IMG/VR virus record: IMGVR_UViG_2687453442_000006
From: a virus
Lineage: Duplodnaviria; Heunggongvirae; Uroviricota; Caudoviricetes
Length of the DNA: 49,011 nucleotides
Direction: 5' to 3' (one strand)
The notes under the pieces were generated by a model that saw only the letters and a list, made by a program, of their open reading frames with translations, made no database searches and was not told the origin of the DNA. The translations under genes were made by a program, and so were the position numbers. Shown in pieces: positions 10,622 through 39,111 of this stretch. The number at the start of each line of letters is the position of its first letter. Position 1 is the stretch's first letter.

Positions 10622-13179
10622 CGTCCACCTCCGGAGAACAGGCCACCATCACGCATCTGTGTCTGAATTTCATCACGGGCACCCTTGCGGGCCATGTCAT
10701 ACACCGCCTTCAGAGCAGCCGGACCTATCTGCCCGTTCGTGCCGTCGTTGTTAATCACCACATGGTTATTCTGCTCAAACGTCCCGGACGCCTGCGACCG
10801 GCTGTCTGCCATGCTGCCCGGTGTACCGACATAACCGCCGGTGGCATAGCCGCGCATCAGCCGGTAAAGATTCCCCACGCCAATCCGGCTGGTTGCCTCC
10901 TTCGTGAAGACAAACTCACCACGGTGAACAATCCCCGCTGGCTCATATTTGCCGCCGGTTCCCGTAAATCCTCCGGTTGCAAAATGGAATTTCGCCGCAG
11001 CGGCCTGAATGGCTGTACCGCCTGACGCGGATGCGCCGCCACCAACAGCCCCGCCAATGGCGCTGCCGATACTCCCGACAATCCCCACCATTGCCTGCTT
11101 AAGCAGAATTTCTGTCATCATGGACAGCACGGAACGGGTGAAGCTGCGCCAGTTCTGCTCACTGCCGGTCAGCATCGCCGCCATATTCTGTGCAATACCA
11201 TCAAAGGTCTGCGTGGCTGCACTTTTTACCTGCGACATACTGTCCGTGGCGCTCTCTTCCCACTCACTCCAGCCGGACTTCAGGCCTGCCATCCAGTTCC
11301 CGCGAAGCTGGTCTTCAGCCGCCCAGGTCTTTTTCTGCTCTGACATGACGTTATTCAGCGCCAGCGGATTATCGCCATACTGTTCCTTCAGGCGCTGTTC
11401 CGTGGCTTCCCGTTCTGCCTGCCGGTCAGTCAGCCCCCGGCTTTTCGCATCAATGGCGGCCCGTTTTGCCCGTTGCTGCTGTGCGAATTTATCCGCCTGC
11501 TGCGCCAGCGCGTTCAGGCGCTCCTGATACGTAACCTTGTCGCCAAGTGCAGCCAGCTGGCGTTTGTACTCCAGCGTCTCATCTTTATGCGCCAGCAGGG
11601 ATTTCTCCTGTACAGACAGCTGGCGACGTTGCGCCGCCTCCTCCAGTACCGCGAACTGACTCTCCGCCTTCCACAAATCCCGGCGCTGCTGGCTGATTTT
11701 CTCATTTGCTCCGGCATGCTTCTCCAGCGTCCGGAGTTCAGCCTGAAGCGTCAGCAGGGCAGCATGAGCACTGTCTTCCTGACGATCGCCCGCAGACACC
11801 TTCACGCCGGACTGCTTCGGCTTTTTCAGTGTCGTTTCATAGTCCTTTTTCGCTGCCGCCATCAGCGTGTTGTAATCTGCCTGCAGGATTTTTCCGTCTT
11901 TCAGGGCCTTATTCAGTTCTTCCTGACGGGCGGCATATTTCTCCAGCGGCGTCTGCAGCCGTTCGTAAGCCTTCTGCGCCTCTTCGGTATATTTCAGCCG
12001 TGACGCTTCGGTATCGCTCTGCTGCTGCGCATTTTTGTCCTGTTGACTCTGCTGTTCAGCCTTCTTTCGGGCGGCTTCAAGCGCAAGACGGGCCTTTTCA
12101 CGATCATCCCAGTAACGCGCCCGCGCTTCATCGTTAACAAAATAATCATCCTTGCGCAGATTCCAGATGTCGTCTGCTTTCTTAAACGCAGCCTCTGCCT
12201 TAATCAGCATCTCCTGCGCGGTATCAGGACGACCAATATCCAGCACCGCATCCCACATGGATTTGAATGCCCGCGCAGTCCTGTCTGCCCAGGTCTCCAG
12301 CGTGCCCATGTTCTCTTTCAGGCGGCGGGTCTGGTCATCAAACCCTTTCGTTGCGGCCTCGTTCGCCGCCTGCAATGCCCCGGCTTCATCGCCGGAACGC
12401 TGCAACTGAGCAACATACGCAATCTGCTCCGCCGTCACGTTATGGAACTGGCGTGCCATCGCCGTCAGCCCCGACGTCGGGTCTGTGGTCAGCTTCCCGA
12501 AGGCTTCAGCGACCTTGTCCACCTCCACGCCGGATGCAGAGGAGAAACGCGCCACACTCTGGCTGATGGACGCAATCTGAGCCTCACCGCTTACCCCCGC
12601 CTTAACCAGTGCGCTGAGTGACTCGCTGGTCTGGTTAAACGTCAGCCCTGCCGCCTGCCCGGCTCTGGACAGGACCAGCATACGATCTGCCGTCAGACCC
12701 GCCTGATTGCCGGAAAGGACCAGCGTTTTGTTGAAATCGGACAGGGTTGAGTTGCCCTGATACCAGGCATACGCCAGCGCACCGGTCGCCACCGCCAGCG
12801 AGGTGGCCCCCACCATCGGCAGGGTGATCGCACCGGCAAGCCCCCTGAACATGGGGATCATCCCGCCGAAGGAGTCCTTCACCTGCCCCCCCTGTTGCAG
12901 CAGGATCAGCCACGGACTTTGCCCGCCTGCAAGCTGCGTGGCCACGTCGGTGAACTGTGCAGGCAGCATACGCATGGCGGCTTTATACTGCCCGACGGAA
13001 ATCCCCGCTTTCTGTGCAGCCAGCGCCTGTCGGCTCAGCGACTGTTCAACGACTGCCGCTGTTTTTTTCGCATCACTTTCCGTACCGGAAAAATGACGCC
13101 TGACTCTGGCCATCTGCTCGTCAAATCTGGCCGCATCCAGACTCAAATCAACGACCAGATCGCCTACCGGTTCAGCCAT
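10618..13179 (-). CDS. H: Tail tape measure protein H
   Basis: 853-aa ORF MAEPVGDLVVDLSLDAARFDEQMARVRRHFSG...; same length as lambda H with matching ends. Confidence 0.95.
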   Translation of the reverse strand: MAEPVGDLVVDLSLDAARFDEQMARVRRHFSGTESDAKKTAAVVEQSLSRQALAAQKAGISVGQYKAAMRMLPAQFTDVATQLAGGQSPWLILLQQGGQVKDSFGGMIPMFRGLAGAITLPMVGATSLAVATGALAYAWYQGNSTLSDFNKTLVLSGNQAGLTADRMLVLSRAGQAAGLTFNQTSESLSALVKAGVSGEAQIASISQSVARFSSASGVEVDKVAEAFGKLTTDPTSGLTAMARQFHNVTAEQIAYVAQLQRSGDEAGALQAANEAATKGFDDQTRRLKENMGTLETWADRTARAFKSMWDAVLDIGRPDTAQEMLIKAEAAFKKADDIWNLRKDDYFVNDEARARYWDDREKARLALEAARKKAEQQSQQDKNAQQQSDTEASRLKYTEEAQKAYERLQTPLEKYAARQEELNKALKDGKILQADYNTLMAAAKKDYETTLKKPKQSGVKVSAGDRQEDSAHAALLTLQAELRTLEKHAGANEKISQQRRDLWKAESQFAVLEEAAQRRQLSVQEKSLLAHKDETLEYKRQLAALGDKVTYQERLNALAQQADKFAQQQRAKRAAIDAKSRGLTDRQAEREATEQRLKEQYGDNPLALNNVMSEQKKTWAAEDQLRGNWMAGLKSGWSEWEESATDSMSQVKSAATQTFDGIAQNMAAMLTGSEQNWRSFTRSVLSMMTEILLKQAMVGIVGSIGSAIGGAVGGGASASGGTAIQAAAAKFHFATGGFTGTGGKYEPAGIVHRGEFVFTKEATSRIGVGNLYRLMRGYATGGYVGTPGSMADSRSQASGTFEQNNHVVINNDGTNGQIGPAALKAVYDMARKGARDEIQTQMRDGGLFSGGGR

Positions 13180-13606
13180 ACCGGACTCCTCCTGCGATCC
13201 CTTCTGATACTGTCATCAGCATTACGTCATCCTCCGTCATGTCCGCCACATCCGGGGAAGCGGGGATAACTTCATTCCCGTCCGGGCCAAAGCGGACACC
13301 TCCGGCAAGCCCTGCCGCTTTCTGCATCAGCACATCATCTTCAGGCTCTTCGTCAGCCTCGCGCCGGTTCAGCAGACTGAAATCCAGCGGATGCATATCC
13401 GGATCGCTGAAAAACAGGCTGAGCACGGTGTACGTCAGCCCGGAAAAGTGCATATCCAGCAGAACATCATGAAAATAATGGGTACTGTAAAAGCGGTGCC
13501 AGTCGGCATACTCCGTGGATGACATCCCGGCAAGCATGGCACGCCAGTCGGGTCGCCCCATCTCACGCGCCAGTTTCAGGGCAAAACTCAGCTCACCGTC
13601 GAACAC
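13172..13606 (-). CDS. T: Tail assembly chaperone T frame, expressed as G-T fusion by -1 programmed frameshift
   Basis: 144-aa ORF overlapping the 3' end of G in the -1 frame; matches lambda T; slippery heptamer GGGAAAG present in the overlap. Confidence 0.8.
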   Translation of the reverse strand: MFDGELSFALKLAREMGRPDWRAMLAGMSSTEYADWHRFYSTHYFHDVLLDMHFSGLTYTVLSLFFSDPDMHPLDFSLLNRREADEEPEDDVLMQKAAGLAGGVRFGPDGNEVIPASPDVADMTEDDVMLMTVSEGIAGGVRYG

Positions 13607-14010
13607 TTTCCCGCAGAAACAGGCTCTGCAGGCCCGGCGTCCTCTGCCTGTTCGGGGGCATTATTCACCACAAACTCATACATACCGGACAGCCGGTACA
13701 CCACGTTTTCAGCATGAGAAATTGCCTCTGTGGGCCAGGTGGTAAGCACTTCCTGCTCAATCTGTTTAACGGCTTCATTCATGGACGGCATCTGCGTCTT
13801 CTTCGGATGGTTATGCCACAGGGACATCGCCACCAGAAACGCGCCGGTTCTGATGACGTCTTCCACAGTAACCTGCCGGTTGCTGTCGGATCCCGCCGGT
13901 TCTGCCTGCCGTTTCATCAGGGCAAGATGCTCAATACGCTGCAGGGCTGACAGTTCAGAAAGCGTGACGGTCACGCCGTTATATTCAAATGATTCGGTTT
14001 TCAGGAACAT
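13588..14010 (-). CDS. G: Tail assembly chaperone G
   Basis: 140-aa ORF MFLKTESFEYNGVTVTLSELSALQRIEHLALMKRQAEPAG... matches lambda G; ends ...SAGKCSTVS with the codons for AGK forming the slippery site. Confidence 0.9.
   Translation of the reverse strand: MFLKTESFEYNGVTVTLSELSALQRIEHLALMKRQAEPAGSDSNRQVTVEDVIRTGAFLVAMSLWHNHPKKTQMPSMNEAVKQIEQEVLTTWPTEAISHAENVVYRLSGMYEFVVNNAPEQAEDAGPAEPVSAGKCSTVS
13597..13603 (-). other. Programmed -1 ribosomal frameshift slippery heptamer GGGAAAG (G to G-T)
   Basis: Plus-strand CTTTCCC (reverse complement GGGAAAG) inside the G/T overlap; known lambda G-T frameshift mechanism; position approximate to about 2 bp. Confidence 0.7.
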
Positions 14011-14025
14011 CGCTGACTCTCCGGA

Positions 14026-14766
14026 TTAACTGGCGGTGACGGTGATTTCTGCAACCGCAGCAAACTCACCATTACCGGATACAACCGGAATGTTGACCTT
14101 GCCTGCAGCAACGCCGTTCACGGTGATGGTCATACCGCTGACCGACACGGTGGCTTTTGTTTTATCCGCAGACACCGCACGGAAGCTCTTGTCGGTTGCG
14201 CCCTCCGGCTGGAATGCCACGGTCAGCGTAGTGCTCTGCCCTTTCACTACGGAAGCACTGGCGGGTGTCACCGTCATGCCGGTTGTCGCCGTCACCGTGC
14301 TGCGATCTTCTGCCATCGACGGACGTCCCACGTTGGTGACTTTCACCGTGCGGGTGATCACTTCCTTCGCCGTCACCGCCTTACCGATACTGCTGACCCA
14401 GCCGCGGAACACATCGACCGTGCCGTTCGGGAAGCGGATTTTATAGGCACGGGTATCCCCTTCATTAAACCACGCCAGCAGCGCCTGCTGCCCCTGCTCT
14501 CCGGGCATCCACGCCAGCGTGAAGCTGGTATCTCCGGCAGATTTCTGCCCCTGCCCGGTCGCAGTCCAGTCCGCATCTTCATCATCGAGATAGCTGTCGT
14601 CATAGGACTCAGCGCTCAGTTCGCCGGGCGTCAGGTCTTTAACTTTAGCCAGACGCGACCAGTCAACGTCTGAAAGCGGGTTCGCATAAGGGTCACCGTT
14701 CCCCTTATAAACCCACAGGGTGGTCCCGGCCCCTTTCACCGGCATTACTGGATTTGGTACAGGCAT
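14026..14766 (-). CDS. V: Major tail protein V
   Basis: Track ORF 14026..14796; start moved in to [22 protein letters not shown] by lambda V homology; C-terminal Ig-like region ...AEITVTAS. Confidence 0.9.
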
Positions 14767-28332: not shown

Positions 28333-29415
28333 ATGAAAAAATTAACAGTGGCAATTTCTGCTGTAGCTGCATCAGTACTGATGGCGATGTCTGCTCAGGC
28401 AGCTGAAATTTATAATAAAGACAGTAACAAGCTGGATCTGTACGGGAAAGTTAATGCTAAGCACTACTTCTCCTCTAATGATGCAGATGATGGTGATACT
28501 ACTTATGCCCGTCTTGGCTTCAAAGGTGAAACCCAAATCAACGATCAACTGACTGGTTTCGGTCAGTGGGAATATGAATTCAAAGGCAACCGCGCTGAAT
28601 CTCAAGGTTCCTCCAAAGACAAAACCCGTCTTGCATTTGCAGGCCTGAAATTCGGTGACTACGGCTCAATCGATTACGGCCGTAACTACGGTGTAGCATA
28701 CGACATCGGTGCGTGGACTGACGTTCTGCCAGAATTCGGTGGCGATACCTGGACCCAAACAGATGTATTCATGACTGGTCGCACCACAGGTGTTGCAACT
28801 TATCGTAACAACGACTTCTTTGGTCTGGTTGATGGCCTGAACTTTGCAGCTCAGTATCAGGGCAAAAATGACCGAAATGAAGTAACTGAAGCTAATGGCG
28901 ATGGTTTCGGTTTCTCAACTACTTATGAGTATGAAGGATTCGGCGTGGGTGCAACCTATGCTAAATCTGATCGCACTAATAATCAGGTTATCTACGGTAA
29001 CAACGGTCTGAATGCTTCTGGTCAAAATGCTGAAGTATGGGCAGCTGGTCTGAAATATGATGCGAACAACATCTATCTGGCCACCACCTATTCTGAAACC
29101 CAGAACATGACTGTTTTTGGTAATAACCATATTGCCAACAAAGCACAAAACTTCGAAGCTGTTGCACAATATCAGTTCGACTTCGGCCTGCGTCCATCCG
29201 TTGCTTACCTGCATTCTAAAGGAAAAGACTTGGGTGTTTGGGGTGATCAGGACCTGGTTGAATATGTTGATGTAGGTGCAACCTATTACTTCAACAAAAA
29301 TATGTCCACTTTTGTTGACTACAAAATCAACCTGATTGATAAGAGCGATTTCACGAAAGCATCTGGCGTTGCTACCGATGATATCGTTGCTGTAGGTATG
29401 GTTTACCAGTTCTAA
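28333..29415 (+). CDS. Prophage-encoded general porin (OmpC/OmpF/PhoE family; NmpC/Lc-like)
   Basis: 360-aa ORF with signal peptide [46 protein letters not shown] and C-terminal ...VAVGMVYQF typical of 16-strand enterobacterial porins; opposite strand to late genes, between Q and the lysis cassette, as in DLP12 (nmpC) and PA-2 (lc). Confidence 0.9.
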
Positions 29416-31022: not shown

Positions 31023-31477
31023 TACGCCTCCTGCTTGTCGCGCAGCAGCTGGAACTCGCAGCTCTGCGGAATAGTCAGGTGACAGCCAATATTCATCGCC
31101 CAGGCTTCAACCTTACACAGGAAGACATACATCTCTCCGGTATCAAGATCGGAGGTATGGCGTAACGACTGGATAGTAGTGATTTCGCCGGTTACGACAT
31201 CAACCAGGTCCTTGGTTTCATAACCGAGGTATGTGTGTTTGAGAGCATCTTTTACCCATGCTGCGGTAGCGAACGATTTCCCCCTGCTGATGAGGTATTC
31301 ACTGATTTCGCTGTACCACATGTGGCTGAGTGCATTCTGGGAAAGACTGCGTCTCTCTCGCCACGGTTTAAGCACCATGCGAAAGCATTTGCCTTCCTCC
31401 AGATAAGGCTGGATCTGCTGGCCGATAGCGGTGAAGTTGCCGCGATGTAATTTGATGCCGTCTTGTGAGAGGTTCAC
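31022..31477 (-). CDS. ybcN: YbcN-like protein (DLP12 nin-region protein)
   Basis: 151-aa ORF (GTG start, GGAGG Shine-Dalgarno) [62 protein letters not shown]...; matches DLP12 YbcN as I recall it. Confidence 0.8.
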
Positions 31478-32065
31478 GCTTCACCTCCGCAGAGGTCAAA
31501 CGTTAGATGCAAAGAATTGCAGGTGCATTTCTGCATCTGTGACGGGAGAAGTGAGTTTGGATTGTGTGTGCGCATAAACGTCCCCGTTTAGCGCAGAAGT
31601 CACCGGAGTTGTTCAGGCTCCGATGAGATGATTATGGCGGGTTGATTATTGAAAATCAATTTTGTGGATTTAGGCGCAATATGAAGGATCATTAGCAGCT
31701 CTAATACCGTTCTGAATCGATTGCTCGCACCCTATTGTGAGCCAGGAAATATTTTTGCTCGATGTAAGTCAAGCCACCGGCTTCACGTCGCTCAGATACT
31801 TGAGGAAGTGGAGTGACATTCTGGCAGGCGGTTAGCATCACCTGCTCGCCATAACCAAGCGAGTGTACAAAGTTCGCTGTCGGTGAATCACCTTTTTATT
31901 GGAGCGCGCTGCACTTCTCATTGAGGATAATTGGTACCCAGTAGACGTATTTTTTCGCTACTGAGTACCTGTGACGATGGCAATCAGATCGGCACTACGA
32001 CAAGTGAAAAAAATCACATTGTATTAAGCATGATTTCATTAAAAACTGGCCAATAGTTATTAAAA

Positions 32066-32086
32066 GACCCCTTGCGGGGTCTTTTA
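32066..32086. terminator. Bidirectional rho-independent terminator downstream of the SIR2-like gene
   Basis: Perfect hairpin gaccccTTGCggggtc flanked by an A-run upstream and T-run downstream (aaaagacccc...ggggtctttt); about 125 bp past the SIR2-like stop. Confidence 0.6.
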
Positions 32087-32208
32087 ATTTATTGTTTTTT
32101 AAGCATTTCCTTGATTTTTTTCTTACTTTCTTCAGAAATTCTGCTTTGGTTGTTGATATTTTTCTGCTTCATAAGCCCCTTCACTCTCAGTTAATCACTG
32201 TTCAATTA

Positions 32209-34191
32209 TTAAGCTGGTTTGCTTATACTTTCTTCGCCAGTGCGTAATCCATCAAATGCCTCATCATTGTCTGCTGATTTGTGAGTTATGGCTTTCTTTT
32301 TATCTGTAGGTATTTCTCTCACATCAGGGCTGAGACTTTGAGTCTCATCCTCAGCAGGAACAACCTCTGGTAACTCCGTTTCTTCTTCGAATGAAACGTT
32401 ATAACCACGCTCTATAGCTACTAGCTTGACCTTTTCATAAAACTCTGTAGAAATCAAGTCAAAAATCGGCATTGATTGCGTCAATATTGTAACTATCTCA
32501 GTTTCATCTAATGCTGATAGCACTTCTTCAGCAATGTCCCATTTTTCTAAAAGTATAGCAGCCCCCAGAGCAAGCCAAGCTTCGTTTTTATCTATCACTT
32601 CATTCAGCACTTCCTCAAGCTCTTGTTGCTGTTTTGCTGAAAGCGGCTGCTTTTGTAATTTGTTGCAAAGAACTCTATTTATAAGCAATAACTGCTTATG
32701 TTTAGACGGTATTGTTCGGGATTCAAGTATGTCCATAAGGCTATTCGCAATTTTGAATTTTTTAGCATCCATTAAGTCCACTAATCCATTTACAAGCTTG
32801 CCAACTTCACCATCATTCATTTTGTTATAACTTGTTATTCTTTCTATTGACTTTTGTATTTCAGAATCATTATCCAAATGAATATAGGAACGAAGTATTA
32901 ATACTTCTGTTTCGAGAGATTTCCCATTAGCCAGATGTTTAGTAGCATATTCTACACATTCATTATACTCTCCAGCACGAAATGCAGAGTTTGCAATCAA
33001 ATAATTGGGGGTATTATAAAAATGAATCCCCTCAGGAGAACCAGCAAATTTAGTTTCCTTTAACATTATTTCTAAAGATTTAGTGATCGAATTATCATCT
33101 AACGATGAGTCTTTCTCTGAAAGAAGTACTTTTATTTTTTTTACAAACTGGCTTACTGTATTCACTCTCCTGACATGATCAGCAAGATTATTCATATCTC
33201 TTTTAATAATCTCATGCTGGACATCTGCGTCATCTTCTTCAGCTATAGAGAAATATCTATCTAGTTTATTAGATAATGCAGAGTATGGCTCTACTACCTC
33301 TTGCTGCAAATTACAGCCTAATGCGTAATGTAATTCAGCCATGAACTCATCAAATCCATTAATTTTAATAAGATGAAAATGAGGAAAGCGGGCCAGATTT
33401 TTAAGTTGCTCAGAAAGTTTTTCAGTGTCTGAGTCACGGATACACCAATAAATCCCATGAGGAAAACAACTACCGGAATGCAATAACGTATTGAGAGTAT
33501 CCATAATTGAACGGTCGTGTCCCGAGTACCCAATAACGATCATGCCAAATTCAGTTGCAAACTGTCTAAATTTGGCCCTCATGTTATCTTCAAGTGACTC
33601 AAGCTCCCTTATAGTATTCTTGATATTGTCAAATAAAAAATCACCATGTAATTTTATTATTTTTGGCCGAGCTGTGGTTAAACGTATGCTGTTGATACTT
33701 GAATCGTGGGCACACACTATTGGTCTCAGATTATTAGAAAAGGTAAAGCAAGCTTCATTGACTAAATCATCGAAGTTAGTCGTAAAAATTGTATTAAAAT
33801 GGCCTTTATCCAATAGATTTGTGAGATAAACGTATCCCCAAGATGGTTTAGCTGCGGTAATACAACTTTCAATAAATTCTCTTCTTTGAGTTGGTTGATC
33901 ATATAATGCTTCAAAAAGCTCTGAATACTCATTATCTTTATCGTACCAAACTTGTTTTTTGAGAGCATCTTCTCCATACATTAGAGTGTAAGCATCTCTC
34001 CAGCGCCTTATCATCCCACCAGCACTATCAACACCACTTGAGATACTAGCACCTGCACCAAGAAAAAGAGTAAAATTTGGATGATGTTGTTTGGTTGAAG
34101 TCAGGATGTTAATTAGGTGCTGCTGTGGTCTAATTTTCATATATATACCGAGACATTCCATGAAAGTTATCATCGGTTCCATATGATACAC
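32209..34191 (-). CDS. SIR2-like (SIR2_2 family) NAD-binding protein with C-terminal helical domain; candidate anti-phage defence NADase
   Basis: 660-aa ORF; N-terminal half has sirtuin-like motifs in order: FTLFLGAGASISSGV, TTNFDDLVNEA, KIIKLHGDF, IVIGYSGHD; C-terminal about 350 aa Leu/Glu/Lys-rich helical with acidic tail; strongly AT-rich; true start uncertain (several in-frame GTG/ATG). Confidence 0.7.
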   Translation of the reverse strand: MYHMEPMITFMECLGIYMKIRPQQHLINILTSTKQHHPNFTLFLGAGASISSGVDSAGGMIRRWRDAYTLMYGEDALKKQVWYDKDNEYSELFEALYDQPTQRREFIESCITAAKPSWGYVYLTNLLDKGHFNTIFTTNFDDLVNEACFTFSNNLRPIVCAHDSSINSIRLTTARPKIIKLHGDFLFDNIKNTIRELESLEDNMRAKFRQFATEFGMIVIGYSGHDRSIMDTLNTLLHSGSCFPHGIYWCIRDSDTEKLSEQLKNLARFPHFHLIKINGFDEFMAELHYALGCNLQQEVVEPYSALSNKLDRYFSIAEEDDADVQHEIIKRDMNNLADHVRRVNTVSQFVKKIKVLLSEKDSSLDDNSITKSLEIMLKETKFAGSPEGIHFYNTPNYLIANSAFRAGEYNECVEYATKHLANGKSLETEVLILRSYIHLDNDSEIQKSIERITSYNKMNDGEVGKLVNGLVDLMDAKKFKIANSLMDILESRTIPSKHKQLLLINRVLCNKLQKQPLSAKQQQELEEVLNEVIDKNEAWLALGAAILLEKWDIAEEVLSALDETEIVTILTQSMPIFDLISTEFYEKVKLVAIERGYNVSFEEETELPEVVPAEDETQSLSPDVREIPTDKKKAITHKSADNDEAFDGLRTGEESISKPA

Positions 34192-34299
34192 GATATCCAG
34201 CTGGTTCGATCATTTTCGCAACAATAAAATGATGCATTCCACTATCTTATACTCCCTATGTTACCCCTAATGTTAACGAGAACTTAACACAGTTGTCTT

Positions 34300-35001
34300 T
34301 CATGCTCTTGCTCCTTTCAGTCCGAACTTAGCTTTGATTTCTGCGATCTTCGCCAGAGCCTGTGCACGATTTAGAGGTCTACCGCCCATGACAGGAAGTT
34401 GTTTTACTGGTTCAGGTATAGCCTCACCACGGTTAATTCGTGCGGACATACAGGACAGTTCATCGGCAGCCTTGCGCCGTAATTCCGCGTCAGTCAACGC
34501 ATTGGCCCGCATGTTCTGATACAGGTTGGTAACCAGCCAGTAGTGCGCGTTTGATTTCCACGGATAAGACTCTGCATCAGGATACAGCCCGCGCTTCCGG
34601 CAATACTCGTAAACCATATCAACCAGCTCGCTGGCGTTTGGCAGCCCGGCGGTAACGGATGCTTCTTCCCGGCACCAGGCGACAAACTGCCCGGGTGATG
34701 GCAGGAATGGTCGATTCTGCCGACGGGCTACGCGCATTCCAGCGTTAACCTGTTCCATTGTGGTGATCCCGTTTTCCCGAAAAGCCAGCACCCACTGGCG
34801 GCGGATTTCGTTCAGTTCATTCTGGTCACGGTTAGCCAGGCTCGCCGGGAAAGTTGCCAGTAACTGGCTGAACACACCGTTGATGATCTGCGCTACCTGC
34901 TGTACCTGCGGCTTTTCGTCGTACTGTTCCGGCATGTTGTTGGCGATCCGGCGCATCTGCTCACAGTCAAAGTTAACCATCTGTGCGGCGATGTTTTTCA
35001 T
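34300..35001 (-). CDS. P: Replication protein P (DnaB helicase loader)
   Basis: 233-aa ORF MKNIAAQMVNFDCEQMRRIANNMPEQYDEKPQVQQVAQIINGVFSQLLATFPASLANRDQNE... near-identical to lambda P. Confidence 0.95.
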   Translation of the reverse strand: MKNIAAQMVNFDCEQMRRIANNMPEQYDEKPQVQQVAQIINGVFSQLLATFPASLANRDQNELNEIRRQWVLAFRENGITTMEQVNAGMRVARRQNRPFLPSPGQFVAWCREEASVTAGLPNASELVDMVYEYCRKRGLYPDAESYPWKSNAHYWLVTNLYQNMRANALTDAELRRKAADELSCMSARINRGEAIPEPVKQLPVMGGRPLNRAQALAKIAEIKAKFGLKGARA

Positions 35002-36013: not shown

Positions 36014-36559
36014 TCATATTGCCCCCAGCATGGTGGTGACCATCGCCATCAGTGGACCAGCCAGATCCGGGTCCACACGAAACATCGACACAATGCCTTC
36101 ACTCATCTCCTTCAGTTTCTGGTGGCGTGGTGCGTTGAGAATGACAGCCTGTTTTGCCTCACTGAGTTCCTTTTCCATTTCAGCCAGCCGAGCCATGAAG
36201 CTATCCTGCTCAACCAGGTGGCCGCGATATTCCAGCGGTAGTACCGCCAGAATTGCCGGGGTCAGTTCACGCACGTTATTTCGGTATTTTTCAGAATCGA
36301 ATTTGTTATCGAGGAAGCGGAACAGCTTCTGGCGTGCACGGCTGACATCATCAGGGAAATCGATGGTGCCGCCGCCCTGCTCCCGATACTCATTCACAAT
36401 GAGTGCGGCAACAACATCCTGATTATCTGCAGCCGACCAGGCGCGGACGGCATCACGGATTTTTTCGTGGCCTGGAGCTTGTTTTGTTTGAGAACGATTT
36501 ATCACCGCAGTCGGGCTAAATCCGCTAGTCTGTTGGTATGTAAGTGGTTGCATAGTCAT
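36014..36559 (-). CDS. CII-position regulatory protein (YdaT-like, tentative)
   Basis: 181-aa ORF between cro and O, overlapping O by 4 nt; no similarity to lambda CII (97 aa) that I can recognise; YdaT-like call is from memory of YdaS/YdaT pairs and is tentative. Confidence 0.45.
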   Translation of the reverse strand: MTMQPLTYQQTSGFSPTAVINRSQTKQAPGHEKIRDAVRAWSAADNQDVVAALIVNEYREQGGGTIDFPDDVSRARQKLFRFLDNKFDSEKYRNNVRELTPAILAVLPLEYRGHLVEQDSFMARLAEMEKELSEAKQAVILNAPRHQKLKEMSEGIVSMFRVDPDLAGPLMAMVTTMLGAI

Positions 36560-37682: not shown

Positions 37683-38756
37683 ATGGAGAACTTAATGGAT
37701 ACTTTAAAATATGAGAAATTCTCTGATTTTGATCACAATGACCCATTTTTTGACTCTTTAAAAAAAGATTATAAAGAGTTTCCTCTTTGGTTAGAAAAAA
37801 AAGCCAGAGAAGGAGAATCAGCTTATGTGCTCTATGATGACAAGCATAAAATCGAAGGTTTTATGTATCTAAAAGAAAATGATGATGCAAATGACATTAA
37901 TCCAGCGCTCCCACCAGGACGTCATCTAAAGATAGGAACATTCAAATTTGAATCTAAAGGCACCCTTCGCGGACAACGATTTCTAAAAAAAGCGTTTGAC
38001 CATGCATTTTCATCAAAATCTGATGATATTTATGTTACTGTTTTCGACAAACACGTCCATCTAATAAAACTTTTCCAAACGTACGGATTTTACATTCATG
38101 GTGAAAAAGAAACACATAACGGGAAAGAGTTTGTATATGCGAGGTCTTTGCATGAGCCTTATGGTGATATTTTATTAGATTACCCTCGAATAATGACATC
38201 AAGGGCCAACAAATATTTACTGGCGATTTATCCCGAATATCACACTAGACTATTCCCTGATTCAAAACTTGTAAATGAATCACCAGATATTGTCAAAGAT
38301 ATATCCCATGCTAACAGCATTCATAAAATTTACATATGTGGAATGCGTTCTGTGATGGGAATGAAAAGAGGAGATATCATTGTCATCTATAGAACCGGAG
38401 ACAAAAAAGGGCCAGCTCGCTATCGTTCTGTAGCCAGTACATTATGTGTAGTTGAGAGCGTAAAAAATATTTCTGAATTTTTAAGCGAAGATAGTTTTGT
38501 AGACTATTGTATTCGTTTTAGCGTATTTTCTGAAGATGAACTCAGAAAAATCTATAAAGAACGTCGATACCCTTTCATTATAAGATTCACATACAATCTG
38601 TCTTTGCCAAAGAGACCCAATCGTGCTATTTTAATAGATCATGTGGGGCTAAATGGTTCGCGTGCATTCCGATGGAGTCACTTTAAACTCACAAATGAGC
38701 AGTTCTTAAAGATCATCGAGTTAGGCAAGATAAATGAAAGTTTTATTATCCATTAA
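37683..38756 (+). CDS. Two-domain protein: N-terminal acetyltransferase-like (GNAT-like, tentative) plus C-terminal PUA-like (ASCH/EVE-like) domain; first gene of rex-locus cassette
   Basis: 357-aa AT-rich ORF; N-terminal 160 aa has a GNAT-like beta-alpha pattern (HLKIGTFKFESKGTLRGQRFLKKAFDHAF ... DIYVTVFDKHVHLIKLFQTYGFYIHGE); C-terminal half resembles PUA-like beta-barrels (KYLLAIYPEY ... GDIIVIYRTG ... VASTLCVVESV); domain calls are pattern recognition only. Confidence 0.55.
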   Translation: MENLMDTLKYEKFSDFDHNDPFFDSLKKDYKEFPLWLEKKAREGESAYVLYDDKHKIEGFMYLKENDDANDINPALPPGRHLKIGTFKFESKGTLRGQRFLKKAFDHAFSSKSDDIYVTVFDKHVHLIKLFQTYGFYIHGEKETHNGKEFVYARSLHEPYGDILLDYPRIMTSRANKYLLAIYPEYHTRLFPDSKLVNESPDIVKDISHANSIHKIYICGMRSVMGMKRGDIIVIYRTGDKKGPARYRSVASTLCVVESVKNISEFLSEDSFVDYCIRFSVFSEDELRKIYKERRYPFIIRFTYNLSLPKRPNRAILIDHVGLNGSRAFRWSHFKLTNEQFLKIIELGKINESFIIH

Positions 38757-39111
38757 GCCTGAGTTTGCAGAAAAAATATTGAACGGAACAAAGCGGTTCG
38801 AGTTTCGTAAAGGTATATTCAAAAATCCGCAAATTAGCACCGTTGTTATTTATGCCACGATGCCATTAGGTAAAGTTGTTGGCCAATTCCGTATTGAATC
38901 AATACTAAGTGACGAACCGGAATCTCTTTGGAAAAAGACGGAAAAACACGCAGGTATTTCTAAGCAATTTTATGACTCATATTATTCAGGTAGAGAAAAG
39001 GCCTACGCAATAAAAATTGGTGAAGTGGAAAGATATAAAGAACCAATTCCTATCTCTGCTCTAGGTAGTAATATTAAGCCACCACAATCATATCTTTACC
39101 TACCTGCGTAA
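38734..39111 (+). CDS. ASCH-domain protein (PUA-like superfamily); second gene of rex-locus cassette
   Basis: 125-aa ORF MKVLLSIKPEFAEKILNGTKRFEFRKGIFKNPQISTVVIYATMPLGKVVGQFRIESILSDEPESLWKKT... follows the ASCH domain pattern; overlaps the upstream gene by 23 nt. Confidence 0.65.
   Translation: MKVLLSIKPEFAEKILNGTKRFEFRKGIFKNPQISTVVIYATMPLGKVVGQFRIESILSDEPESLWKKTEKHAGISKQFYDSYYSGREKAYAIKIGEVERYKEPIPISALGSNIKPPQSYLYLPA

Follow-up and report, generated by a model that had tools for sequence, protein, structure and literature searches.

The stretch of DNA analysed here (the window) is the 49,011-nucleotide IMG/VR virus record IMGVR_UViG_2687453442_000006, a member of the Caudoviricetes. On its minus strand it carries a gene for a protein that joins a SIR2 domain to a tetratricopeptide repeat (TPR)-like superhelix (the SIR2-TPR protein, 32209..34140), followed by an unannotated micro open reading frame (micro-ORF, 32089..32172). 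We consider it probable that the region at ~31994-34299 is a mobile two-gene anti-phage cassette, or 'moron', which acts by NAD depletion and in which the micropeptide regulates the SIR2-TPR enzyme. While a SIR2 defence gene on a prophage is expected, the obligate micro-ORF and its tie to an acidic tail of the enzyme are new. All position numbers are window coordinates, and homology figures refer to the SIR2-TPR protein unless another sequence is named.

In the preliminary description of this DNA the SIR2 gene was regarded as solitary. This did not hold, as a conserved micro-ORF with its own strong Shine-Dalgarno sequence was found between the SIR2 gene and the terminator in every acidic-tailed member examined (20/20 lineages, >40 loci). 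The window micro-ORF encodes a 27-aa peptide, MKQKNINNQSRISEESKKKIKEMLKKQ, with a net charge of +6 and a predicted amphipathic C-terminal helix. Its Shine-Dalgarno sequence, GAAGGGG (32176..32182, minus strand), was calculated to form an anti-Shine-Dalgarno duplex of -7.1 kcal/mol; the value for the start of the window SIR2 gene is -3.4 kcal/mol. The same bias was found across the family, the mean duplex energy being -8.2 kcal/mol for 19 micro-ORFs versus -3.2 for 18 SIR2 starts (p = 2e-7), and the micro-ORF Shine-Dalgarno sequence was strong in 19/19 loci. Micro-ORF-bearing loci were found in E. coli, Klebsiella, Citrobacter, Aeromonas and Vibrio and occupy at least five genomic slots. The peptides encoded in Klebsiella (MKPKNVNSQSKISEESKIKIKEMLKNK), Citrobacter (MKQKSQHASSKISEESKKKLKELLKKQ), a second Klebsiella lineage (MKDKNAATNVKKLDLEEKKKLIEQIESKK), Aeromonas (MKEKFQKPRVITSQEVKDKMVELIKKNKKKQ) and Vibrio (MKEKKVVNRKKLTQEQKARLKRLAKL and MKEKMPKATYKLSNEEREKLKKLTKK) range, with the rest of the family, from 26 to 34 codons and align nearly without gaps to the consensus MK[EDQ]K, about 8 variable residues, K[LI]SxEEKKKLKELLKK. 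In two Vibrio loci the micro-ORF overlaps the SIR2 stop codon, in one of them through ATGA.

Several observations argue that the micro-ORF is a translated gene rather than a conserved RNA. The ratio of nonsynonymous to synonymous differences (pN/pS) was 0.07-0.56 in 15/15 close pairs, and entropy at codon positions 1, 2 and 3 was 1.18, 1.05 and 1.46, the third being the most variable. Nucleotide identity was 81-85% within the micro-ORF versus 47-64% around it (spacer, SIR2 tail and the 60 nt that follow). The hairpin followed by a T-run that closes every homologous cassette differs in sequence from lineage to lineage, and a search of 31400-34500 against Rfam returned no credible RNA family. 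Judged by these substitution patterns, the micro-ORF is under purifying selection. The peptide also appears to be specific to this setting: a hidden Markov model (HMM) of it matched only these ORFs among 25,956 small ORFs (1.66 Mb), with a next-best E = 1.1, and a model built free of Vibrio sequences ranked two Vibrio copies 1st and 2nd of 18,368 small ORFs (E 5e-5 and 0.096). An HMM made from four close seeds missed distant copies; positional scanning, an 18-sequence HMM and leave-clade-out HMMs were used. In public records the peptide is sporadically annotated as 'hypothetical' or 'uncharacterised' (e.g. SLN92561.1, DAO54696.1), and PGAP omits it in E. coli ZH193.

The micro-ORF co-occurs with an acidic tail on the enzyme. 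The 20 enzymes that precede a basic peptide (net charge +1 to +9) all end in a disordered acidic tail, for which the final 60 residues have a net charge of -5 to -19. Seven relatives (loci L013, L014, L017, L019, L141, L142 and L143) have no such tail and end soon after a conserved [MW]PI motif. A basic micro-ORF follows the SIR2 gene in 20/20 acidic-tailed versus 0/7 tail-less relatives (Fisher p = 1e-6), and six of the seven tail-less loci have no micro-ORF of any kind. The remaining one, L142 (metagenome contig ERZ21849169), encodes a tail-less protein of 582 aa and then an acidic 35-aa micro-ORF, MNSLLNPEHNNETMDDTLKSLINELIEELHSGQAD, at L142 3294-3401, with a net charge of -7 and with its own Shine-Dalgarno sequence and terminator, as though the acidic element had been transferred here from the enzyme tail to a separate peptide. 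Proteins of the sister families carry neither acidic tail nor micro-ORF (14/14). When 19 pairs were inspected by eye, no tracking of peptide charge with tail charge was seen.

The enzyme of the cassette starts with a SIR2 domain of the NADase type (aa 1-290; 33271..34140, minus strand), recognised by Pfam, PADLOC, PDB and Foldseek matches. All four sirtuin motifs that had been read from the sequence are indeed present and, in the alignment, are invariant or nearly so across the family: FLGAGASISSGV at aa 26-37, TTNFDD at 120-125, KLHGD at 163-167 and GYSGHD at 204-209. The HMM search that had been suggested for this domain gave Pfam SIR2_2 (PF13289) at 52.6 bits against a cut-off of 24.5 (E 7e-14, aa 134-264). 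PADLOC reported Aga_SIR2-PNTD1-PNTD2 at E 5e-63, restricted to profile positions 73-294 of 558, which is the SIR2 part only. Sequence matches in the PDB were the SPARSA Sir2 chains 8jkz and 8in8 (E 5e-24), and Foldseek returned another SPARSA Sir2 chain, 8jl0_A, at E 2e-11. These comparisons place the N-terminal domain in the SIR2 clade whose members are paired with short Argonautes (SPARSA). Canonical sirtuin deacetylases carry a CxxC zinc module; none was visible in the family alignment, which was read by eye. The catalytic residues are retained, as the predicted catalytic and NAD-binding residues N122 (33775-33777), H165 (33646-33648) and D209 (33514-33516, all minus strand) align opposite N142, H186 and D230 of GsSir2 and are invariant in 31 homologues. 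According to work on GsSir2, its N142 and H186 correspond to the residues that ThsA needs to hydrolyse NAD+, and D230A abolishes both NAD+ binding and defence (bioRxiv 10.1101/2021.12.14.472599). By analogy, NAD+ hydrolysis is the predicted activity of the domain.

Structure prediction, which had been put forward as a way to classify the C-terminal half, resolved it into a TPR superhelix and a disordered acidic tail. In the AlphaFold models the SIR2 domain is followed by a linker of lower model confidence (aa 291-378; 33007..33270, minus strand), made up of an EEDDAD acidic patch, a long helix (aa 310-342) and a second helix. The TPR-like superhelix (aa 379-577; 32410..33006, minus strand) has about 12 helices and is the predicted sensor domain. 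It is fast-evolving: across the family, identity is 60-92% in the SIR2 domain versus 16-79% in the TPR region, where it falls to 16-26%. A conserved SIR2 domain together with a divergent TPR region is the pattern expected, from alignment, of an effector joined to a fast-evolving sensor. The tail (aa 585-643; 32212..32388, minus strand; predicted local distance difference test score ~30) has a net charge of -10 over the final 60 residues in the window protein. An ADNDEAF motif and the extreme C-terminus [KR]PA are common to the tails of the enteric homologues; their wider pattern, in alignment columns ~740-795, is [KT]P-A-[DE]-N-D-E-A-[FY], and the [KR]-P-A end is invariant. SSB-type tails are protein-docking tips with an acidic-plus-aromatic pattern, which the present tail pattern recalls, and the extreme C-terminus could be a putative TPR-binding end.

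In overall design the protein resembles DSR2 of Bacillus subtilis, a single polypeptide that likewise begins with a SIR2 domain and ends in an alpha-helical repeat sensor. Activation of DSR2 follows the binding of a phage tail-tube protein by its C-terminal solenoid (PMC11850899, PMC10973363). The suggestion that the window gene encodes a short protein of the DSR type was borne out for the architecture, since Foldseek aligned the protein to DSR2 chains at full length (~700 columns, E 6e-9 to 1e-6), but not for family membership, as the PADLOC library, which includes Dsr2 (PDLC02184), gave no match to the Dsr1 or Dsr2 profiles at E <= 1. Compared with DSR2, the SIR2-TPR protein is ~350 aa shorter and its SIR2 domain is of another clade; the acidic tail and the accompanying micropeptide gene are, to our knowledge, not part of DSR2. 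Assignment to DSR1 or DSR2 was rejected on the missing profile match and on the place of the SIR2 domain in the Argonaute-associated clade. The closest SIR2 domain by both sequence and structure is instead that of SPARSA and GsSir2-APAZ, with identical N/H/D active-site residues, and the record of a Vibrio homologue carries the label 'pAgo__SIR2APAZ'. Membership in SPARSA was also rejected: the protein has no APAZ (PNTD) domain, its C-terminal half being TPR, and there is no adjacent short prokaryotic Argonaute (pAgo), nor was an Argonaute gene found in the window neighbourhood or in any homologous locus inspected. With neither an APAZ domain nor an Argonaute gene nearby, guide-RNA-directed sensing is not possible.

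The absence of an adjoining TIR, HerA, Argonaute or STAND partner that had been pointed out was upheld, the neighbours being P, O and nin genes. Avs5 resembles the SIR2-TPR protein in coupling a SIR2 effector to a helical-repeat sensor, and in Avs5 (SIR2-STAND-sensor) and NLR-like defences the helical-repeat sensor recognises phage proteins (PMC12931631). An Avs5 or STAND identity was rejected, as the protein has no Walker A motif ([AG]xxxxGK[ST]) and no NTPase profile match and is much smaller. Thoeris ThsA was rejected because Pfam and PADLOC gave no SLOG or TIR match and ThsA was matched through the SIR2 fold only, and SIR2-HerA (Nezha) because the window and homologous loci hold no HerA helicase ORF; profile searches gave no HerA or APAZ signal either. 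Two further likenesses concern the front of the protein: the PADLOC candidate PDC-S65 has the SIR2 domain and the first part of the linker in common with it (E 1e-33, aa 14-345 to profile positions 8-344 of 592), and PHROG 14359, a group of 860-930-aa SIR2 proteins, matches at E 4e-95 over aa 17-352. Both are also single proteins on prophages or islands and have a similar W/M-P-x-hydrophobic end motif, but they differ in their C-terminal regions and have neither acidic tail nor micro-ORF; PDC-S65 itself is a computational candidate system only. More generally, sister proteins of 480-930 aa have the SIR2 domain in common, at 45-52% identity, and other C-termini; no Argonaute partner was found among them, and no match to a Dsr profile except one faint Dsr2 hit in L016. 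The literature search found no named system joining SIR2, TPR and a micropeptide, and no description or test of the family or of its peptide. 'Sole-Sir2' (bioRxiv 2024.12.27.630466) was considered and rejected as the same system, being 440 aa long with its Sir2 domain at the C-terminus, and a V. cholerae NAD-depletion system was set aside as it concerns Nezha.

The closest precedent for the gene arrangement comes from another enzyme class. The SoFic defence toxin is neutralised by AS1, a small protein encoded downstream (PMC12249575). As in the present family, a toxic effector taken for a 'single-gene' system was later found with a small downstream gene; SoFic differs in being a FIC AMPylase and not a SIR2 protein, and the small proteins are non-homologous. 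A second comparison is with the RRNPP peptides (Rap-Phr, AimR-AimP), which Gram-positive bacteria and their phages make as pro-peptides that are secreted and processed. The micropeptide would act inside the cell, given its high charge, its lack of a hydrophobic signal sequence and its Gram-negative hosts.

The boundaries of the cassette could be drawn closely. The preliminary description gave a minus-strand ORF of 660 aa; such an ORF does exist when read from a GTG (32209..34191), but the protein is more likely 643 aa long, starting at the ATG at 34140 (MKIRPQQHLINIL). This start is kept in 31/31 aligned homologues, which share the N-terminus MK[IT][RK]PQQHLINIL, and is the one used by PGAP in the identical locus of E. 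coli ZH193 (WP_225876873.1, 'SIR2 family protein'). It has a weak Shine-Dalgarno sequence, and alternative starts lie upstream at ATG 34161 and GTG 34191. A longer N-terminus is ruled out by an in-frame TAA six codons upstream in a Klebsiella locus. Counted from the ATG at 34140, the gene begins 159 nt from the P stop codon and not about 100 bp as first estimated. On the P side, DNA similarity to lambda, phage 21, HK140 and DE3 extends no further than 34300, where the stop codon of P is completed; as ren is annotated across that junction in the records of these four, the placement of the gene in the ren position of lambda was correct. Lambdoid homology, in the form of a Rha/antirepressor remnant, resumes at ~31993, where blastn against phage records covers only 31480-31993. 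These two breaks delimit an insert of ~2.3 kb (31994-34299), the distal end of the cassette-specific DNA being 31994..32058. The gene was rightly called AT-rich, with a GC content of 0.32-0.39 inside versus 0.48-0.56 in the P, O and nin genes.

The bidirectional intrinsic terminator (32059..32088), located by terminator scan and RNA folding, abuts the stop codon of the micro-ORF. Its stem is a perfect 13 bp around a GACCCC/GGGGTC core with U-tracts on both strands, and it folds at -22.6 kcal/mol (z = -4.3; 0/200 shuffles fold as well). The hairpin reported earlier is thus real, yet it lies 120 nt past the SIR2 stop codon, with the conserved 27-codon gene in between. At the other end, the AT-rich spacer between P and the SIR2 gene (34141..34299, minus strand) holds a block of ~40 nt (34179-34216) conserved with the Klebsiella and Citrobacter cassettes, in which it is the 3' end of an 81-97-aa ORF. 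In those loci (L002 7740-7985; L006 7736-8011) this ORF is preceded by dinI and abuts or overlaps the SIR2 start. It was considered as a partner gene and rejected, as it is missing from other contexts and only the ~40-nt remnant survives in the window, where it marks a recombination breakpoint. A scan of the upstream spacer found no consensus promoter on the cassette strand; weak promoter-like hexamers within the conserved block were the only promoter-like signals seen.

The element that carries the cassette is a lambdoid prophage integrated beside ybhC, a neighbourhood which we take to be the region of the lambda attachment site. The SIR2-TPR gene was present in 26 of 5,426 complete E. coli genomes, at 99.6-100% identity, which speaks for an accessory insert and not for a core component of the replication or nin region. 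The window gene was also found on three identical IMG/VR viral contigs, and the cassette on 18 IMG/VR viral contigs. About 2,200 homologues were retrieved. Full-length ones are 73-81% identical in Klebsiella, Citrobacter, Enterobacter and Buttiauxella, ~54% in a second Klebsiella/Enterobacter lineage and 44-49% in Aeromonas, Vibrio and Photobacterium; PHROG 23427, of unknown function, is a full-length match. In Klebsiella and Citrobacter lambdoid prophages the cassette lies between P and the late-regulator region, and elsewhere it was found directly after a cI-like repressor (in a Rac-like prophage), directly after Q, beside the integrase of a PM2-like Vibrio prophage and on the Aeromonas chromosome adjoining thrABC. 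The cassette has the marks of a moron, namely a GC content of 0.32-0.39 versus ~0.52 in the flanks, sporadic occurrence, its own terminator and insertion between conserved genes. Among the PhiR-named E. coli phage records in the phage collection, tblastn gave no match to the SIR2 protein. A match to aa 22-404 (28% identity, E 3e-35) was found at 12969-14162 of Haloferax virus Halfgib1 (MW344766.1), annotated 'tetratricopeptide repeat protein', so that SIR2-plus-TPR proteins are also found on archaeal viruses. In E. coli PEC301 (NZ_CM168013.1) an IS2 lies within the matched region spanning the SIR2 gene, the spacer and the end of P, and may be a natural knockout or a change of expression.

From these data we infer a defence activity, a trigger and a role for the peptide, including the direction of its effect, along the following lines. 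In the uninfected lysogen the enzyme would be made at a low level and kept inactive. The abundant micropeptide would be part of this control; most plausibly it would dock in the TPR groove, on the acidic tail or on both, serving either as a safety catch or as an assembly cofactor. When a superinfecting phage enters, one of its proteins would be recognised by the TPR domain, or the peptide would be displaced or depleted, upon which the SIR2 domains would oligomerise or be released, hydrolyse NAD+ and so abort the infection. By analogy with DSR2 and SPARSA, we propose that the SIR2 NADase is inactive until the TPR domain engages a phage-derived ligand. A more specific form of this proposal, possible but doubtful in our view, is that the SIR2-TPR protein and the micropeptide are an intracellular receptor-ligand pair, in which an abundantly translated, probably short-lived basic peptide seated in the TPR groove or on the tail holds the NADase off. 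A halt of host expression imposed by the phage, or capture of the peptide by a phage protein, would then remove the brake. Such sensing would amount to 'guarding the micropeptide': in Gram-negative prophages, an effector that depletes NAD would be combined with genes organised in the manner of RRNPP systems.

A number of points weigh against a regulated two-gene defence cassette. The literature search brought up no experiment in which a member of the family was shown to hydrolyse NAD, to be toxic or to protect against phages, and translation of the micro-ORF is inferred from sequence. The acidic micro-ORF of L142 is not predicted by a simple charge-pairing model. Since the tailed clade may be monophyletic, tail and micro-ORF may have become associated just once, in an ancestor, and not through repeated co-selection. 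Moreover, the gene lies within the early rightward operon and lacks a convincing promoter, and transcription would be expected on prophage induction.

It was also considered that the SIR2 gene is a single-gene, DSR-like defence in which the micro-ORF is idle as a peptide and the conserved stretch serves stability of the mRNA 3' end or termination. PGAP and most gene callers annotate the SIR2 gene alone, DSR2 and many SIR2 effectors act as single polypeptides, and the sister SIR2 families do without a micro-ORF. This explanation seems to us unlikely, as micro-ORFs whose SIR2 partners are only ~45% identical still agree in frame, length, MK[EDQ]K start and amphipathic C-terminus, while nucleotides and hairpin diverge; the low pN/pS, the variable third positions, the strong Shine-Dalgarno sequences and the Rfam result described above point the same way. 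A toxin-antitoxin or addiction module, in which an NAD-depleting toxin is paired with a presumably short-lived peptide antitoxin and chiefly stabilises the prophage or element, would fit the weak translation signals of the enzyme and the strong ones of the peptide, which match toxin-antitoxin stoichiometry, as well as the movement of the cassette with mobile elements and the SoFic/AS1 precedent for a small downstream antitoxin. Toxin-first gene order and a basic 27-aa antitoxin are atypical of type II modules, and a large, fast-evolving TPR domain is hard to explain without an external ligand. We judge a module of this kind improbable as the main function; many such modules also act in defence, so that it overlaps with the regulated defence cassette that we prefer.

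Another suggestion is that the gene aids the lytic growth of the phage itself, through NAD or ADP-ribose remodelling, ADP-ribosylation or deacylation, or by countering a host defence. The ren-like position and the orientation in the pR early O-P-nin unit, together with the want of a clear promoter of its own, speak for such a role, and SIR2 domains can act as ADP-ribosyltransferases (PMC9503650). However, the occurrence of the cassette after a cI-like repressor, after Q, by an integrase and at a non-phage chromosomal site means that it is not tied to the early operon, its closest SIR2 relatives are defence NADases, and it is rare among otherwise similar prophages; a part in lytic growth therefore appears quite improbable. 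That the cassette is a decaying or inert passenger without current function is the least credible explanation and a very remote one. Gene remnants do lie on its flanks (the P22 antirepressor pseudogene and the truncated upstream ORF), and IS2 stands beside it in one E. coli, but the ORF is intact (643 aa) and 99.6-100% identical in 26 genomes, the catalytic motifs are invariant across genera and the micro-ORF is under apparent purifying selection.

Several other genes of the prophage, and of its relatives, deserve mention. Just beyond the cassette, at ~31719-31931 on the minus strand, lies the frameshifted pseudogene of a P22-type antirepressor (P22AR C-terminal), which marks the P-nin interval as a scarred mosaic; Citrobacter prophages have, in addition, an entire arsenic resistance (ars) operon there (L006 1308-7170). 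Directly past the cI-like repressor, in the slot of rexAB in lambda, two AT-rich genes (37695-38753 and 38734-39108, plus strand) match the PADLOC candidate PDC-M11, the A gene at E 3e-133 over its full length and with no Pfam domain, the B gene at E 7e-52 and with an ASCH domain. The same prophage thus bears two candidate defence cassettes. In the position of cII, flanked by the cro-like and O-like genes, a gene (36014-36556, minus strand) encodes a YdaT_toxin-domain protein (Pfam E 7.5e-30), and a YdaS/YdaT-type arrangement was also seen in Klebsiella prophages that bear the SIR2 homologue. Between the Q-like antiterminator and the lysis genes, as in DLP12, an OmpC/NmpC-type porin gene of 360 aa with AT-rich flanks was found (28333-29415, plus strand), which PGAP names ompC in the identical ZH193 locus.

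SIR2 effectors that deplete NAD+ recur in bacterial immunity, and each raises the question of how it is kept silent and then triggered. Annotation makes the present family look like a 'single-gene' system, as PGAP calls the SIR2 gene only and PADLOC offers Argonaute-SIR2 models and a single-gene candidate. The cassette is just 2.3 kb long, sits in a well-understood E. coli prophage slot and is directly testable with standard coliphages. If the peptide does control the enzyme, sirtuin-based defence would gain a new level of regulation, and it would follow that 'single-gene' defence systems can hide micro-partners that are skipped by standard gene calling.

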